Part shown: piece after piece, positions 1 through 13,926 of the stretch
Position numbering within the stretch: position 1 is the first letter of the stretch
Layout of the letters: every line of letters begins with the position of its first letter
Source: a virus
Taxonomy: Duplodnaviria > Heunggongvirae > Uroviricota > Caudoviricetes
Length of the DNA: 13,926 nucleotides
IMG/VR virus record: IMGVR_UViG_2529292830_000019
Strand: one strand, 5' to 3'
The notes under the pieces: model-generated
Database searches by the model: none
What the model saw: the letters and a program-made list of their open reading frames with translations, nothing else
What the model was told of the DNA's origin: nothing
Program-made: the position numbers and the translations under genes

Positions 1-30
1 ACACCCACTCTATTTAAATACCGTCTTTTT

Positions 31-75
31 GTCACTGTGTGTCACTGGTTGTCACTCTCCGTCACGGTATGTCAC
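31..75. repeat. Five direct GTCAC repeats at exactly 10-bp spacing (31, 41, 51, 61, 71)
   Basis: Read directly: tGTCACtgtg / tGTCACtggt / tGTCACtctc / cGTCACggta / tGTCACcaca. Lies just downstream of the last minus-strand gene. Confidence 0.6.
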
Positions 76-5222: not shown

Positions 5223-6368
5223 TTACTTGCCAGCCTGAATTTCCAGAATCTTGATGGCGTTCGAATCCACCACACCACCGCCCAGATATTTCTGGGTATA
5301 GATGTTAATGAATCCAGGCTCGCTGAAATCCGGACGGGTACGCGTACCGGTTTTATGGTCAACGATGAAATAACCGCGCTTAAAGTCACCGACTGCAATC
5401 ACACCGTCCGGCATAAATTCCAGATATTCAACCGGAAGCCCCAGCAGAGAATCAGGATCACCAGCCTGTAAACGATCGCGCCAGATGTAATCACCAGTGG
5501 CATTTTTCAGTTTTTGTGCGGAGGCGGCTGTATTTGAGTTCATCACCCATACAGCTTTTTTGCGGTACTTATTGCGCAGCGTAAATTTCAGGTCAATCAG
5601 CATATCGGCGCTGAGACTGCCAGTCACTTTTTTCGTCTGGAGCGTACCGAAAGGACGGGTTTTGTCATTATCCGTAGTGCGCGGGAAAGTCAGGAAACCT
5701 TTGGCTTTTTTCTCGCCATCCCCGGAAACCAGATCCGTTTCTTCGGTATCAACGAAAGTGTCGCCAATTTCAGAAGATAACCAGCCCATAATATCGACTT
5801 CGGAAAAATCGATAATTTCCTGAGTGGTTTTCGGGTAAGCGTAGATCGGATACAGGCGGATACTGACTTCATTCAGTTTTGGGGTTGCCGTCTGGTTACG
5901 TGCCGCACCTTCTTCGCCGTGTCCCACGACCGCACCCCCGGCAGAAACCAGTTGCTTAAATTCATTACTGTGAATGGTTTTAACAGTACAGATTTTACGC
6001 ATCACCGACTCATCAGAAAGCTGACGCATAATTTCTCTGTTCAGTTCCGGGATAACCGTATAACCACCATCAGCCGGAACACTGCCGGACAGGTTGCGGG
6101 TTTCCCCGGTCAGAATGTAAGAGCGTAGCTCATTTTTGGTGATTTTATCTTCGACGGGAACACCAGGCTGGTTACGTTCTTCATCAGCCACAGACTCGAG
6201 GCGGGAAATTTCTGTGTCGAGGGAATCGGCTTTTGCACGCAGTTCATCAAACTGTTTGCCTTCGTCATCGGTTAGACTGCGGTTTTCACTGTCGGCTTTT
6301 TCCAGCAGGGATCGCATCTGGTTTTTCAGGGCGGTTTTTTGCTGGCGGAGTTCGATTAATTTCTTCAT
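5223..6368 (-). CDS. HK97-family major capsid protein, 381 aa
   Basis: N-terminal coiled-coil delta-like region (MKKLIELRQQKTALKNQMRSLLEKA...) followed by an HK97-fold-like body; size is typical. Confidence 0.9.
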   Translation of the reverse strand: MKKLIELRQQKTALKNQMRSLLEKADSENRSLTDDEGKQFDELRAKADSLDTEISRLESVADEERNQPGVPVEDKITKNELRSYILTGETRNLSGSVPADGGYTVIPELNREIMRQLSDESVMRKICTVKTIHSNEFKQLVSAGGAVVGHGEEGAARNQTATPKLNEVSIRLYPIYAYPKTTQEIIDFSEVDIMGWLSSEIGDTFVDTEETDLVSGDGEKKAKGFLTFPRTTDNDKTRPFGTLQTKKVTGSLSADMLIDLKFTLRNKYRKKAVWVMNSNTAASAQKLKNATGDYIWRDRLQAGDPDSLLGLPVEYLEFMPDGVIAVGDFKRGYFIVDHKTGTRTRPDFSEPGFINIYTQKYLGGGVVDSNAIKILEIQAGK

Positions 6369-6517
6369 GAAGGTTTTCTCGCATTGGTTAAGATTCAGGA
6401 CGTGAAACCAACACGGGGGGAGCGCCGCCCGACACTCTCGGCATCTCGCAGATCAACCCGGCATCGCGCAGGGGGTCAGGCGGCATTGTGGCGGCTCACG
6501 TCTGAGTGCCACACGCC

Positions 6518-6545
6518 AACATATACATAAAAATCAGTATGTAAA
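6518..6545 (-). promoter_or_regulatory. Candidate sigma70 promoter for the head/packaging operon (-35 TTTACA, 16-nt spacer, -10 TATGTT on the minus strand)
   Basis: Hexamers read by eye. Lies between the upstream terminator and the capsid ATG, giving a leader of about 140 nt. Confidence 0.25.
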
Positions 6546-6562
6546 CATCAACCAGAATCACC

Positions 6563-6590
6563 GAACAACCTGGAACAACCACGAACAAAT
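6563..6590 (-). repeat. Three 10-bp-phased repeats (minus strand ATTTGTTCgt / GGTTGTTCca / GGTTGTTCgg) upstream of the candidate capsid promoter
   Basis: Read directly; plus strand shows GAACAACC at 6563 and 6573 and GAACAAAT at 6583. The same TTGTTC/TTGTGTC motif recurs at 12350-12400 and 12614-12676. Confidence 0.55.
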
Positions 6591-6602
6591 AATTTACAAA
6601 AC

Positions 6603-6634
6603 CTGAAAAAAGACCCGGAAAAAATCCGGGCCTT
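6603..6634 (-). terminator. Rho-independent terminator separating the SSB/FinO operon from the head operon
   Basis: Minus-strand RNA: GGCCCGGA-UUUUU-UCCGGGUC stem-loop followed by UUUUUU, immediately after the stop of the 82-aa ORF at 6642. Weaker U-run on the plus strand. Confidence 0.55.
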
Positions 6635-6641
6635 TATCGCT

Positions 6642-6890
6642 TTATTGTTTCACTGGCTCCCGCATTCTGCGTCTTATTTTCCACAAATATTCGATCATCG
6701 CTTCCACCTGCTCACGGTTGGTTGCGAAAATTTCCCCGGTCAGTGAGCTACGCAGAAAATCATGATGATCCACAAAAAATAACGCATCGGAAGAAAGCAA
6801 CCGACGATATTTTTTTGCTGTCGTGGTTTCCAGATCATCAAAACCATGAAGCTTTTTATGTTGCTGAACTTCTTCAAATGTCACTGGCAT
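6642..6890 (-). CDS. Hypothetical protein, 82 aa
   Basis: ATG at 6890 overlaps the upstream gene by 10 nt (coupled). No family recognised. Confidence 0.5.
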   Translation of the reverse strand: MPVTFEEVQQHKKLHGFDDLETTTAKKYRRLLSSDALFFVDHHDFLRSSLTGEIFATNREQVEAMIEYLWKIRRRMREPVKQ

Positions 6891-8159: not shown

Positions 8160-8400
8160 CCTTCACCTGTTCACCTTTTGAGATTTTCCCTTTTTATTCA
8201 TAATGTTAAGGAGTGAACAGTTTCACAAAAACTATTCACCAACTGTTCACCACTGTTCACCCTTAAAGCTCAATAAATAATCAAAAAGGTGAACAGTGAA
8301 TAGTTTGGTGAACAGTTCACAAATAACTGTTCACCCTATAATGTACTGATATAAAAGATATTTATAACAGGGTGAACAGTGGTGAACAGTTATTCCATAA
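8160..8400. repeat. Iteron-type replication origin: about ten copies of CTGTTCACC / GGTGAACAG in both orientations in AT-rich DNA, directly 3' of the primase gene
   Basis: Forward copies at 8167, 8243, 8253 and 8327; reverse copies at 8212, 8288, 8307, 8381 and 8391; variants CTATTCACC (8232) and TGAATAG (8297). Several are 10 bp apart. The motif equals the P4 type I iteron TGTTCACC as I recall it. Confidence 0.65.
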
Positions 8401-8402
8401 GT

Positions 8403-10217
8403 TTAATTTTTGCTGTCGTCATTTGTGACCGATGCACATGATGGCATCCAGTCTTCTGAATCCTCTGTCAGTGTCACATTTGAACGCAAACCGTGCTTCG
8501 TTTTCCGTTTTATATACTCCCTGCCATATTCCGCCATTGCCCCCGGCATATCTTTACCGAAGCGCGTCAGTGTTACAGGTTTACCGAATCCGTGTGCCCT
8601 CATATATGCCAGATAGGCGTGATAAAGATACCTGCGCGGACTGAACGGAATAATTTCGGCATTACCCACTAACAGACCATCACACATTACCGACGACATG
8701 AGATAGCCACAGAAGTCCACCAGCGAATCGCCCTCGCGTTTTATCACCAGAGCTTCTTCTGATTTCTGCTGCTCATACAGCAGGCGTTTAGCTTCGTCCT
8801 GGTCAGAAAAACGAGTAAGCAGATGGCGAATCACAACCGCCAGCTCTCCTTCTATTTTTTCTGCCAGCATGGGGTCGCGCTCGTTCTCCGGTACAACCTC
8901 CGAAAAATTGAATATCACCCGACGACGTGAGATCCCCCCGCTGCGGTCACTGAATGACATGGCGTTATTGTTCACCGCCAGCACGACCGCCTGAATGCGT
9001 GTTGAGTAGGGGGCTTTATGCTTCGGGTCGATTGCCACCTTGTCACCGCCTGTAATGGCCTTAATTCCTGCGCCATCACCAGCGTAGCGGGTCATATCCG
9101 GCATGATAATCAGCGAAAAGCCAACCACTAACGCGCGTTCCCTTGCATCTTCCAGCGCCTTCATGCTTGCCGATACTGTGTTGGCCTTACCCGCCAGCAT
9201 AGTGCAAATCTCCGCCATCACGCTTTTACCACTTCCCCCTGGACCTGTTACCTCAATGAATAACTGCCAGTCGTACCGGTTCGCCAGCACCATGAATAAT
9301 GCAGCCAGCACGCGATCCGTCTTGCGGTCATTCTCTGCCACCGAGCAGCGTAACCACTTCCAGAAATTCGGCGCATGTGTTGCCAGCGTTTCCCCCTCTG
9401 CTGGTGGGCTGAAAGGTAATTCACTGGCAATTAACAACCAGTCGTTTTTGTTATGCTCCCGAAAATTACCTGTTCTGGTATCAAATACCCCGTTACTGAA
9501 TCCAATCAGGTTACGGGCTGTATTCCCCATTACAGGCAAACTTAACTTCATGGTATCGACCGCCGATTTAATGGCGTTCTGCGAATAGCTGATCTCCGCA
9601 TCAATGAAAATCTGCGCCATAGCACGCTGTAACTCTTTATCCTGAATCGGCTCCCATACAACGCCGTTGTAATGGTGAACAGTGTCAGAGTCGGCATGAA
9701 TCGCCAGTTCACCGCCATAATGTGCCAGGAGAACTTCGCCGCGCTGGCTTGCTCCCATCTGGTTAAGCGCCAGTGGTGCGGCGCTGTCTTCTGTTTTTTT
9801 CTTAACAGGAAGCTGAATCACCAGACCATCAGAAAGATTCTGGCGCTCACGGGCCAGATATTCGCGCCAGTTCTGCACCTCCTGACCGTGCATACCCTCA
9901 GGATAAAAATTTGCATCCTGTACGCCTGCCGCCGCCAGCTTCTGACCAATCGCCTTTATCATTACTGGCGCAAGATATCCGGCCCTGAATATGCGCACGG
10001 ATTTTCTGCCTTCCGGCACAATTTGCAGCTTATCCAGTTCGGATAACTGCTGCTCCCCAAGCCACACAGGAGGCTCATTATCTCCGGCCATACGCGCGTC
10101 ATGTTCCTGCCATTGTTTTGCGTGTGACCAGGCATCACTACCCGCAAAAATAATGACTTCTGTTTCTTTGTGTTTTATGCCGCGTGACTGCTGTTTTACG
10201 TTCGGTGCCAGTTTCAT
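8403..10217 (-). CDS. Primase-helicase replication initiator (P4 alpha / D5-type, SF3 helicase Walker A), 604 aa
   Basis: Walker A GPGGSGKS within a D5-like helicase region, with a primase-like N-terminal half. ATG overlaps the upstream ORF stop (ATGA); the iteron origin lies immediately downstream. Confidence 0.85.
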   Translation of the reverse strand: MKLAPNVKQQSRGIKHKETEVIIFAGSDAWSHAKQWQEHDARMAGDNEPPVWLGEQQLSELDKLQIVPEGRKSVRIFRAGYLAPVMIKAIGQKLAAAGVQDANFYPEGMHGQEVQNWREYLARERQNLSDGLVIQLPVKKKTEDSAAPLALNQMGASQRGEVLLAHYGGELAIHADSDTVHHYNGVVWEPIQDKELQRAMAQIFIDAEISYSQNAIKSAVDTMKLSLPVMGNTARNLIGFSNGVFDTRTGNFREHNKNDWLLIASELPFSPPAEGETLATHAPNFWKWLRCSVAENDRKTDRVLAALFMVLANRYDWQLFIEVTGPGGSGKSVMAEICTMLAGKANTVSASMKALEDARERALVVGFSLIIMPDMTRYAGDGAGIKAITGGDKVAIDPKHKAPYSTRIQAVVLAVNNNAMSFSDRSGGISRRRVIFNFSEVVPENERDPMLAEKIEGELAVVIRHLLTRFSDQDEAKRLLYEQQKSEEALVIKREGDSLVDFCGYLMSSVMCDGLLVGNAEIIPFSPRRYLYHAYLAYMRAHGFGKPVTLTRFGKDMPGAMAEYGREYIKRKTKHGLRSNVTLTEDSEDWMPSCASVTNDDSKN

Positions 10218-12131: not shown

Positions 12132-12320
12132 TTAGTGAACTGCCTCGCGGCTGTCCTTCCATGCCAGAACTTCGGATAAAGACCAGCCAACGGAACGACC
12201 GCCGAGTTTACGCCGTGATGGGAATTGTCCGGTCTTTTCCAGGCGATACCGACATGAGCGGCTCAGGCCTGTAAGTTGCTGACATTCTTTTTCACGTATA
12301 AAGCGATCTGTGCTTAACAC
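12132..12320 (-). CDS. alpA: AlpA-family phage transcriptional regulator (excisionase-like winged HTH), 62 aa
   Basis: IREKECQQLTGLSRSCRYRLEKTGQFPSRRKLGGRSVGWSLSEVLAWK matches the AlpA (Phage_AlpA) pattern. GTG start at 12320 with AAGGGGG 4 nt upstream. Confidence 0.85.
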   Translation of the reverse strand: MLSTDRFIREKECQQLTGLSRSCRYRLEKTGQFPSRRKLGGRSVGWSLSEVLAWKDSREAVH

Positions 12321-12349: not shown

Positions 12350-12400
12350 CATTGGGTGGATTATTGGGTTGGGTTGTGTCGGATTGTGTCAGGGTGTTTA
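12350..12400. repeat. Phased TTGGGT / TTGTGTC repeats (about 10-bp period) immediately upstream of alpA
   Basis: cattgggtgg / attattgggtt / gggttgtgtc / ggattgtgtc / agggtgttta. A possible alpA promoter overlaps it on the minus strand (-35 TTGCCA at 12411..12406, -10 CACAAT at 12388..12383). Confidence 0.45.
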
Positions 12401-12483
12401 TGGAATGGCAAACAGTGATGTGGTGTTCGTCGCTGAAACAGGCGCAATTAGAAAAAAACTATTTTGATTCATTTGGATACAAA

Positions 12484-12513
12484 GGCGTAAAATTCTGCAT
12501 TTACGCCTTTTTT
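12484..12513 (+). terminator. Strong plus-strand rho-independent terminator in the int-alpA intergenic region, with no annotated plus-strand gene upstream
   Basis: GGCGTAAA-attctgca-TTTACGCC (8-bp stem) followed by TTTTTT. On the minus strand the trailing U-run is poor (UUUGUAUCC). Confidence 0.5.
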
Positions 12514-12613
12514 ACATATTTTTAAGATTGATTCGCCAATGTACAAAAAAACAGTAAACCACCAGAAAATCAGACTTATAGGGAGTTAATCAGAAATAAT
12601 CATAGATAATCAG

Positions 12614-12676
12614 ATTTGTTCCAGATTGTTTGCCGTTGTTCGTCGTTGTGTCTCGTTGTTCCACGTTGTGTCCGTT
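12614..12676. repeat. Six to seven tandem 10-bp-phased repeats of (c)GTTGT(T/G)(T)C just 3' of the integrase stop
   Basis: atTTGTTCc / agATTGTTTG / ccGTTGTTCgt / cGTTGTGTCtc / GTTGTTCcac / GTTGTGTCc / GTTCtg, read directly. Confidence 0.6.
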
Positions 12677-12696
12677 CTGAAAAATCACGAAAAAAA

Positions 12697-13926
12697 TTAT
12701 ATTTCTCTGGCTATTGGCAGTGTGGTTACGTTTTCGTGAGTACCCGCCAGTATCTCTAACCGCTCTGTCCACATGTCCAGCGCATTACGTTTCGCATCGA
12801 GATAACGGGAGTGGTTATAGACTCGCTGCATCCCTGGCATCTGGTGAGCGGTGAGTTGTTCGACAATATGCGGATCCACGCCTAAATCGTTCAGCATCGT
12901 GGTAAACGTGCGCCGTATATCGTGTAGTGACCAGTGCGGATGGTTTAATTTTTTGTGCGTGAATCTGCCGTATTGCGACACGCTGGCTTCCTGTTTCAGT
13001 TCCCCGAGTAATAGTCCTGTGTGTCGGTTCTGCTCCACCAGCCGTGTGACGAACGGTAAAATGCTTTCCGGTATTGGCCTGAATATGGCGACCTTCGTTT
13101 TGCTGTGCTCCTTCGGTACTGTCCAGAGCATTTCCTTAAAATCCCCCTCCCTGATCTCCGACAGCCTCAGTTCTCCGGTTCGGCAACCAAACACAATCAG
13201 GAGGCGGATTAGTGCGCTGTAGTAGGGCGGGAATATTTTTTTATCCAGCGCCTGTAATAATTCGCCCAGTTCTTTGTTACTAAGCACGCGTTCGCTTATG
13301 CCCGGCTTTTTGCCAACGTCCACCACGTTGAGATCATCCAGAACGTTACTGACTGCGTAGCGACGTTTACGGCAGAACTTAAGCGCCTGTTTACACGCCT
13401 GCATCATGTGACCAGACGTTACGGGGGATTTTTTGCGTATCCGGTCAAAACAGGCCAGCCAGTGACGTAATTCGCATTTATCCAGTGGCATGTTACCGAT
13501 GTGCTGTATGACGTGATTATTCAGGCGACTTTTCAGGCATACATAATCGACACGGTTTTCCTTTCCGTGCGTTTCCAGCCAGTAACTGATCGCATCGCCA
13601 ACCGTTACGGGTTTTAACGCTTCCTGCACAGTGTAGTTCAGTTCATGACGTGGGTTTTTCCCTTCTGCCAGCCATGCACGACACTTTGCGGCTTTTTCCC
13701 TGGCTGCTTTAAGGCTCAGATCGGGATAGTTTCCCAGCTTCAGGCGTTCCGGTGTGGTATCCCTTCCCGTTCCAGCCCTGTAGGTGAAGTACCAGGTCAA
13801 TTTACCTGATGTTAAATATTTCACGCTCAGATTACCGCCATCGCTATAGAACGTATTTTTCTCCGCTGGCTTACCATAAAGTTTTCTTAACAATGTATCG
13901 TTCAGTTTGTTAAGCGCTCTGCTCAC
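12697..13926 (-). CDS. int: Tyrosine recombinase / integrase, P4/CP4-57 type, at least 409 aa; 5' end at or beyond the window edge
   Basis: N-terminal arm-binding-like region (LNDTLLRKL...GNLSVKYLTSGKLTWYFTYR...LKLGNYPDLSLKAAREKA) and a catalytic domain with HDIRRT and the C-terminal tyrosine region. The frame is open to the last base; the codon at 13926..13924 is GTG. Confidence 0.9.
   Translation of the reverse strand: MSRALNKLNDTLLRKLYGKPAEKNTFYSDGGNLSVKYLTSGKLTWYFTYRAGTGRDTTPERLKLGNYPDLSLKAAREKAAKCRAWLAEGKNPRHELNYTVQEALKPVTVGDAISYWLETHGKENRVDYVCLKSRLNNHVIQHIGNMPLDKCELRHWLACFDRIRKKSPVTSGHMMQACKQALKFCRKRRYAVSNVLDDLNVVDVGKKPGISERVLSNKELGELLQALDKKIFPPYYSALIRLLIVFGCRTGELRLSEIREGDFKEMLWTVPKEHSKTKVAIFRPIPESILPFVTRLVEQNRHTGLLLGELKQEASVSQYGRFTHKKLNHPHWSLHDIRRTFTTMLNDLGVDPHIVEQLTAHQMPGMQRVYNHSRYLDAKRNALDMWTERLEILAGTHENVTTLPIAREI

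Follow-up and report, generated by a model that had tools for sequence, protein, structure and literature searches.

We analyzed a stretch of DNA of 13,926 nucleotides (IMG/VR virus record IMGVR_UViG_2529292830_000019; hereafter the window), focusing on a short array of helically phased TTGTTC repeats that lies in front of its major capsid gene. By gene content the window is a capsid-forming phage-inducible chromosomal island (cf-PICI), with int, alpA, a primase gene and a capsid-to-TerL module, and no tail or lysis genes. Elements of this class are defined by int, alpA, primase and packaging genes, the lack of tail and lysis genes, and a size of ∼10-18 kb (10.1101/2025.02.11.637232; gene set also 10.1101/2022.09.08.507074). 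At 100% identity the window matches E. coli NCCP 13717 (NZ_CP115984.1), where the island occupies ∼14.8 kb between its att cores and interrupts yifB. The att core, ATCCGCTATT, is found just beyond each window end; the flanked locus, comprising island and flanks (18.9 kb), is referred to as L073.

Nearly all window genes are on the minus strand. In that direction they run int, alpA, small open reading frames (ORFs), a DUF4222 protein gene, primase-helicase, SSB, a ProQ/FinO protein gene, an 82-aa ORF and the packaging operon, the latter ordered by family matches as capsid, protease, portal, connector, HNH, TerS and TerL. The genes and signals on which the analysis turns are as follows.

12697-13926, minus strand: tyrosine integrase gene, with an Arm-DNA-bind_3 domain match.
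12132-12320, minus strand: alpA, encoding a 62-aa winged-helix excisionase/regulator (PF05930, E = 2.7e-18), the proposed repeat binder.
10217-8403, minus strand: D5-type primase-helicase gene.
6642-6890: 82-aa ORF beside the capsid promoter, last gene of the upstream operon that starts at alpA.
6609-6635, minus strand: terminator-like hairpin with a T run at the end of the alpA-to-82-aa-ORF operon (-19.4 kcal/mol, z = -3.9; unlisted in the pattern scan).
6590-6599, minus strand: TTGTAAATTA box, directly 5′ of the array and 11 bp from its first unit, kept at a constant distance from the -35 across 26 unique promoter variants, those with different units among them.
6562-6589, minus strand: three phased 8-mers, TTTGTTCG (6582-6589), GTTGTTCC (6572-6579) and GTTGTTCG (6562-6569), start-to-start exactly 10 bp.
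6518-6545, minus strand: sigma-70 promoter predicted for the capsid operon, TTTACA (6545-6540), 16 nt, TATGTT (6523-6518).
5223-6368, minus strand: major capsid gene, first of the packaging operon (PF05065, E = 8e-61).

Read on the minus strand from 6599 to 6562, the array and its box are TTGTAAATTA TTTGTTCG tg GTTGTTCC ag GTTGTTCG. The original prediction, made from the letters of the window, had described three repeats at exact 10-bp spacing before the head-operon promoter; the sequence, Tandem Repeats Finder (period 10 at 6562-6588) and shuffled controls agreed with it. The pair pattern TTGTTCN4TTGTTC, allowing up to 2 mismatches, gave 12 matches against 1.78 expected, a number reached in 0/200 shuffles. 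Since the bare 7-mer GTTGTTC was not enriched alone (5 versus 2.35 expected), the signal resides in the phasing. In L073, runs in which TTGT recurs at least three times with exact 10-bp spacing occur at four places, namely the two att arms, a cluster (B) behind int and the capsid promoter, as compared with a mean of 0.007 runs in 300 dinucleotide shuffles.

The site TTTACA-16-TATGTT was the sole sigma-70-like site in 6300-6700 and begins 16 nt past the last unit. Taking TTTACA at 6545-6540 as the -35 hexamer, the units lie 17-44 bp upstream of it, close to the 20-45 bp first proposed. With the operon start predicted at ∼7 nt past the -10, unit centers fall at about -54.5, -64.5 and -74.5, to be compared with class I activator sites near -61.5, -71.5 and so on, the start here being itself a prediction. 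A strong hairpin with a T run closes the upstream operon, so that the capsid operon probably needs its own promoter; the hairpin at 6609-6635 would shield this promoter from read-through. Of 484 E. coli genomes giving any match, many contained the 57-bp stretch 6563-6619, and only 132 matched at least 80% of the surrounding 521-bp query. The stretch is selectively conserved, which counts in favor of the repeats being operators for AlpA.

We compared the region with IMG/VR cf-PICI loci (a capsid-protein scan of species-representative genomes gave one close relative). Alignment of 26 unique cf-PICI variants anchored on the TGTAAAT box placed box, -35, -10 and a leader hairpin in register with zero indels, the predicted promoter position being kept without indels in all 26. 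The 30 bp between box and core promoter consist of three phased units that are lineage-specific, TTGTTC-like in most and TTACC-like in L003, L028, L032 and L044. Judged by sequence, the capsid control region looks like an exchangeable operator cassette within a fixed frame, and the TTGTAAATTA box could represent either one more unit, the fourth, or a site of its own. Packaging proteins were tried as binder of the units and rejected: TerS, TerL and portal of L045 and L047 are 98-100% identical to those of the window, yet these loci have a different unit set.

The original prediction had also placed the same phased motif in two clusters between int and alpA. Both are real, and two features that it had missed are their orientation, opposite to that of the capsid-promoter array, and the presence of further copies on the att arms. 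The elements of the int-alpA region are:

12615-12672, plus strand: cluster B, six units at exact 10-bp spacing, TTTGTTCC, ATTGTTTG, GTTGTTCG, GTTGTGTC, GTTGTTCC, GTTGTGTC.
12351-12400, plus strand: cluster A, a phased array of four or five degenerate units, ATTGGGTG, ATTGGGTT, GTTGTGTC, ATTGTGTC, GGGTGTTT.
12383-12411, minus strand: predicted alpA promoter, TTGCCA (12411-12406), 17 nt, CACAAT (12388-12383).

Cluster B begins 25 bp beyond the int stop codon, alternates TTGTTC and TTGTGT types, and lies ∼240-300 bp upstream of the predicted alpA start site, past a hairpin at 12481-12510. The scan listed no antisense promoter for cluster B on the plus strand; a weak hand-read TTCTGA-17-TATATT (∼12676-12704) is recorded here and no claim is made for it. 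Cluster A extends across both the -10 and the start site predicted for alpA. The predicted alpA -35, TTTGCCATTC, is conserved in L001, L010, L040 and EcCICFT073, a classical PICI. Three TAATCA units, 10-bp spaced (window 12587-12614), adjoin cluster B in register, giving nine phased units in a row; this TAATCA array is absent from EcCICFT073, and L040 has only a trace of it.

Outside the window, TTGTTC-type arrays are present on both att arms. Upstream of int, L073 16490-16527 reads GTACAAC gtg GAACAAG ctg GAACAAG, and at the far island end L073 1921-1948 reads GAAACAAC gtg GAACAAA ta GACACAA. Each is accompanied by a doubled ACTACACC motif (L073 1886-1906 and 16466-16486), and arrays and doubled motif are situated ∼70-150 bp from the core ATCCGCTATT, the arrays themselves at 86-132 bp. 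The capsid-promoter array lies ∼7.5 kb from either att arm and has the same motif.

Their presence on both att arms raises the question of whether the TTGTTC repeats are simply integrase arm-type sites, and lambda P'1-3 are indeed three consecutive direct repeats. The doubled motif follows Int, being GGTGTAGT twice here, GTGTGGTCAG twice in L035 and L056 (Int 68-74% identical) and GTGTATTGCA twice in L020 (Int 40%). Because it changes along with the integrase, the doubled ACTACACC motif behaves as expected of Int arm-type sites, and it probably represents those of the island. The annotated attP arm repeats of P4 have the same layout, with adjacent 12-bp doublets flanking the core to left and right. 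The TTGTTCG triplets are unchanged in L035 and L056, with a degenerate version in L020 and L021. Constancy of these units at 68-74% Int identity, while the neighboring doubled motif changes, led us to reject the arm-site explanation. Furthermore, the capsid-promoter block is kept in islands with 40%-identical Int, the arm repeats of the P4 family are annotated as adjacent doublets, and Int arm sites are not known to occur within a late promoter. We give this explanation very little credence. A doubled motif around attP has been reported for related PICIs (PMC10111431).

Phased arrays of this kind are typical of recombination directionality factors (RDFs), which bind head to tail on tandem repeats spaced by one turn of the helix; Apl, Cox and Vis regulate promoters distant from att through like sites, and Apl binding needs three adjacent operators (PMC7498355). 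The island matches this description on several counts. Each array has at least three direct repeats in one orientation and one turn apart (three units at the capsid promoter, six in cluster B, three and four on the att arms). Arrays lie inside the att arms, next to the putative integrase arm-type sites, and also at a distant promoter, as expected of a dual-function regulator. Finally, the element encodes a small winged-helix RDF, AlpA, identified by PF05930, PHROG and model matches. Family, PHROG and structure comparisons identified AlpA as the sole protein of the element with an excisionase fold. Its PHROG match is annotated 'excisionase and transcriptional regulator', and it matches PDB 8c3t with E = 5e-7. 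The predicted structure is a MerR-like winged helix (predicted local distance difference test score, pLDDT, 88), with template modeling (TM) scores of 0.80 to the GIsul2 excisionase, 0.66 to RdfS and 0.64 to TorI.

The block at the capsid promoter was also found in L001, L002 and ∼40 IMG/VR cf-PICI loci. L001 is an O157:H7 cf-PICI at roxA/phoQ, of EcCIEDL933 type, with a DUF927 primase and a PerC gene in place of ProQ, and L002 is a further E. coli cf-PICI that differs from both the window island and L001. A position weight matrix scan located arrays in L001 and L002 at the same four positions as in L073, and one more was seen by eye over the alpA promoter. In EcCICFT073 (L077) the attL array and cluster B are present, cluster A is identical, and an attR triplet can be read from the sequence; no TTGTTC block precedes its lambda-type late genes. 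This distribution assigns the capsid-promoter array to the cf-PICI packaging module and the other arrays to the int-alpA module. Cluster B is conserved in L001, L002, L016, L040 and EcCICFT073. A motif search over the element and its relatives showed arrays recurring at att arms and in independent islands.

Genetic data on these relatives point to AlpA. The EcCICFT073 protein is identical to the window AlpA at 60/62 positions; it acts as an activator of its own promoter region and, when overexpressed, triggers excision and replication of the island (PMC6092414). EcCIEDL933 induction requires alpA (10.1101/2022.09.08.507074), and purification of EcCIEDL933 particles relies on an alpA-overexpressing strain for reproduction (10.1101/2025.02.11.637232). 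Expression of int, which the original prediction had named among the targets of AlpA-family proteins, was unchanged by AlpA in EcCICFT073 (PMC6092414). This is a caveat to assigning the arrays to AlpA, and it makes the attL array likelier to be architectural than regulatory.

The proposal of a shared element-encoded binder, with AlpA as the best candidate, is supported by the att-arm triplets, the sole excisionase fold, the recurrence of the arrays, including in EcCICFT073, and alpA genetics. On the available sequence evidence we consider it fairly likely that the TTGTTC(G/C) units are AlpA operators, which would place the capsid/packaging operon under the same regulator as the att arms and alpA. 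We infer from the arrangement AlpA binding, the direction of its effect at each site and the start of transcription, as follows. AlpA monomers would assemble head-to-tail on tandem repeats one helical turn apart, and arrays of at least three units would allow cooperative occupancy as AlpA builds up after helper-phage induction. On the att arms, arrays adjoining the integrase arm-type sites would direct excision. At the capsid promoter, where the array lies at about -55, -65 and -75, the -10 is weak and read-through would be blocked by the terminator, an AlpA filament could activate transcription in a class I-like manner or by DNA bending. Clusters A, at the alpA promoter, and B, after int, would serve autoregulation.

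An excisionase doubling as a transcription factor through helically phased repeats is an established principle, known from Apl, Cox, Vis and TorI. Like AlpA in our proposal, 186 Apl and P2/HP1 Cox are small helix-turn-helix proteins that act cooperatively on direct repeats 10-11 bp apart, at att and at distant promoters. They differ in repressing switch promoters of their own phage, whereas activation of a late (capsid) operon is proposed here, and AlpA is a Phage_AlpA protein (PF05930) with a MerR-like winged-helix fold. In P4, three tandem 10-bp repeats with TTAAAG lie upstream of vis at 9176-9205 (CACTTAAAGT, CATTTAAAGC, CACTTAAAGC), which we take to be the Cox boxes that mediate activation of P4 PLL by P2 Cox; Saha et al. 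in 1989, a study cited in PMC7498355, reportedly described Cox binding and activation at this promoter. The likeness, three tandem 10-bp repeats upstream of a satellite promoter, comes with a difference: in P4 a helper-encoded activator acts on an early/late-left operon, whereas here the satellite's own AlpA would act on a capsid/packaging operon, which P4 lacks. The homologous P4 protein, Vis, is needed for excision (PMC6092414).

A further parallel is offered by TorI. The proximal TorI block in K-12 KplE1 reads cAGTTCG tca tGGTTCG ctt cAGATCG, with exact 10-bp spacing, directly before the PintS -35; two further TorI sites, 20 bp apart, are found at KplE1 attL. TorI sites at KplE1 attL have the core GTTCG, with variants GATCG and GTCCG (PMC2951348). 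The block shares this core and its geometry with TTGTTCG tgg TTGTTCC agg TTGTTCG, and the winged-helix fold is common to both proteins (TM 0.64). TorI differs in repressing intS and in having no site known at a late operon. With 26% identity to AlpA across 42 aa and an E of 0.12 against the Pfam AlpA family, TorI is no more than a distant relation, and it is taken as an analogy.

Several observations weigh against AlpA as the activator acting through these units. First, the shared GTTCG core of the TorI and TTGTTCG sites could be coincidental, and our literature searches found no published AlpA operator or footprint in PICIs, nor any operator sequence for EcCICFT073 AlpA or Vis. Second, inverted-repeat analysis showed clusters A and B to be inverted relative to the capsid-promoter array, and cluster A, by covering the predicted alpA -10 and start, occupies a repressor-type position, at odds with the autoactivation measured in EcCICFT073 (PMC6092414). 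Third, the class I geometry at the capsid promoter is tentative, resting on a predicted start. Fourth, the block is identical in islands where AlpA is only 53-66% identical and the int-alpA regions are unrelated (the L018 group of 14 loci, L019, L023, L035, L043 and L056). Co-variation of units with AlpA alleles was tried as a test for the binder; it cannot single one out, because the block is the same across four AlpA types. The TTACC-type lineages were left out of this comparison, no alpA being present in the retrieved loci. Fifth, L018-type islands keep the block and have only a degenerate TTGTTC array at attL, together with two AlpA-like paralogues, the second with an N-terminal extension and preceded by a terminator-like hairpin. 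Excision and activation may be split between the two AlpA-like genes in these islands.

Invariance of the block among islands differing in AlpA, Int, primase and accessory genes, a further point against an AlpA operator, would be explained equally well if a host or helper-phage protein recognized the TTGTTC arrays and AlpA acted elsewhere or indirectly. Host factors such as IHF and Fis also bind att arms. To our knowledge, no E. coli factor with TTGTTC-array specificity has been described; the TorR tor box, CTGTTCATAT, has TGTTC in common with the units. In addition, shared specificity among the AlpA alleles is plausible, since the helix motif R-x-x-R-[YWF] is present in all cf-PICI AlpA alleles of block-carrying islands, the wing GGRSVGW is found in W- and V-type alleles, and L035 and L056 use TTGTTCG at their own att arms. 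Other cf-PICI lineages put different phased units in the same scaffold, which is a better fit to an element-encoded binder, and phased head-to-tail triplets beside Int arm sites are an RDF signature (PMC7498355). EcCICFT073 excises and replicates when alpA is expressed in the absence of helper phage (PMC6092414), and EcCIEDL933 particles are obtained with a strain overexpressing alpA (10.1101/2025.02.11.637232), indicating that a helper protein is not required. We conclude that a host or helper protein as the binder is unlikely.

Candidates encoded by the element itself, other than AlpA, are an 88-aa Icd-like protein, the YlcI/YnfO protein, the product of the 82-aa ORF and a ribbon-helix-helix (RHH) protein. 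The last had been offered as the alternative to AlpA in the original prediction and found no support, no small ORF matching an RHH family. The 88-aa ORF matches phrog_6196, 'transcriptional repressor', and ranges from 40 to 100% identity among block carriers. The 82-aa ORF is 93-100% identical in most islands with the block or a close variant, an association explained by linkage since the two are physically adjacent. Moreover, the block occurs with a 40% allele of this ORF in L001 and without the ORF in L002, and profile searches gave the ORF no DNA-binding domain match. None of the 88-aa, YlcI/YnfO and 82-aa candidates accounts for the att-arm arrays, and EcCICFT073 has att-arm, A and B arrays. 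Another element-encoded binder is therefore highly improbable.

The repeats might alternatively be replication iterons, forming a second origin, bipartite as in P4 (ori/crr), to which the primase-helicase would bind. Their phasing, a TGTTC core like that of the P4 iteron TGTTCACC, and their location at two distant loci, as for P4 ori and crr, would fit such a role. This possibility was rejected, as a separate TGTTCACC cluster at 8160-8395 is the likely origin and the TTGTTC block is independent of primase type, persisting with primases of other type (D5-like, DUF927) that are 41-100% identical. As iterons the TTGTTC repeats are scarcely credible. The cluster consists of at least nine exact or near-exact TGTTCACC copies, in both orientations, within an AT-rich gap directly downstream of the primase-helicase gene. 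Its unit is the same as the annotated 'ori type 1 repeats' of P4 (e.g., GGGTGAACAGTGGTGAACAG in both), and by sequence it is the probable replication origin of the island. PICI origins lie downstream of the primase gene (PMC6092414, PMC10111431). A full-text literature search for 'TGTTCACC' returned unrelated primer sequences only.

The capsid gene is preceded by a leader of ∼150 nt (window 6366-6514, minus strand) that is conserved across cf-PICI lineages. Its 5′ hairpin, GUGGCACUCAGACGUGAGCCGCCAC (∼6513-6487), is invariant in ten aligned variants, and a different hairpin occupies the same place in L001 and L002. The arms of the central hairpin change together between lineages, and the 3′ hairpin adjoins the ribosome-binding region. 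In addition, the 5′ hairpin segment GACGUGA is complementary to UCACGUC ∼35 nt before the capsid ATG. A search of the promoter/leader region against Rfam returned no family (best E = 0.16, far below gathering scores). The capsid leader may be an attenuator or a translational control element.

In L001, whose hand-read counterpart promoter is TTTACC-16-TATTCT, a terminator-like GTCCTGG-N16-CCAGGAC-T8 lies within the 50 nt directly preceding the capsid ATG. The 5′ hairpin of the L001 leader is complementary to the left arm of this T8 terminator, and both change together in the EcCIEDL933 type, raising the possibility of a second, RNA-level control. A terminator-like hairpin, GCTCTCGAAC...CGAACGAGGGC-T7, also stands directly before alpA in other alleles (L031, L035, L045, L047 and L018). 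There are hints of antitermination or attenuation at these hairpins.

Such hairpins bear on whether AlpA might bind the array without being a class I activator. Other conceivable roles are those of an antiterminator loader, a purely architectural protein and a repressor of the capsid promoter. P. aeruginosa AlpA, a small winged-helix regulator of the same name that switches on lysis/late-type operons, is a processive antiterminator; it recognizes the element GGGACG-N5-GGTA between -35 and -10, loads onto RNA polymerase, and has terminators in its target leaders (PMC7969949). Terminator-like hairpins with T runs before the L001 capsid ATG and before alpA in other alleles, the structured leader conserved in all lineages, and the long, N-terminally extended AlpA paralogues of some islands would suit a mechanism of this kind. 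The P. aeruginosa element is no phased array, however, and its position between -35 and -10 makes that model a misfit here: our units occupy about -51 to -78, on the upstream side of the -35, and no repeat is present in the spacer. Nor does the window AlpA, a short 62-aa form, possess the N-terminal segment, and no intrinsic terminator was detected in the window's capsid leader. Taken together, these data make the other roles considered here improbable.

Two or three consecutive AlpA-like genes were observed in L018, L020, L037 and L049, one of them being longer by an N-terminal extension of ∼35 aa. This extended form is reminiscent of the antiterminator AlpA of P. aeruginosa in its described domain layout.

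The induction of Gram-negative PICIs is understood in part: it is known to require AlpA, AlpA is also sufficient for it, and we found no description in the literature of its DNA target or of its route to the late genes. If the TTGTTC units are AlpA operators, the AlpA regulon would comprise both att arms, alpA itself and, in cf-PICIs, the capsid/packaging promoter, and one small protein would couple excision to production of the satellite capsid. The repeats would then provide a sequence signature for AlpA-controlled promoters in other islands and a handle on cross-activation of co-resident satellites. Since the proposed TTGTTC operator is common to AlpA alleles that are 53-66% identical, and to classical and capsid-forming PICIs, cross-induction between satellites is conceivable. 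The fixed scaffold, made up of the TTGTAAATTA box, three exchangeable units, core promoter and an invariant leader hairpin in the ∼150-nt leader, suggests a second control layer. As a tentative extension, possible though doubtful, the AlpA of one island may excise a co-resident island and switch on its capsid operon, with an RNA attenuator or a box-binding factor as the additional layer of control.

Two other repeat families were observed toward the far end of the island. Five TGTCAC units, 10-bp phased, occupy window 29-75, downstream of a 97-aa ORF in the accessory region; this array was absent from 9/9 other islands checked. Six copies of (T)AACCCGC / GCGGGTTA, three per strand, lie between the window start and the att core (L073 2170-2345), where they surround the start of a small plus-strand ORF, three upstream and three within.

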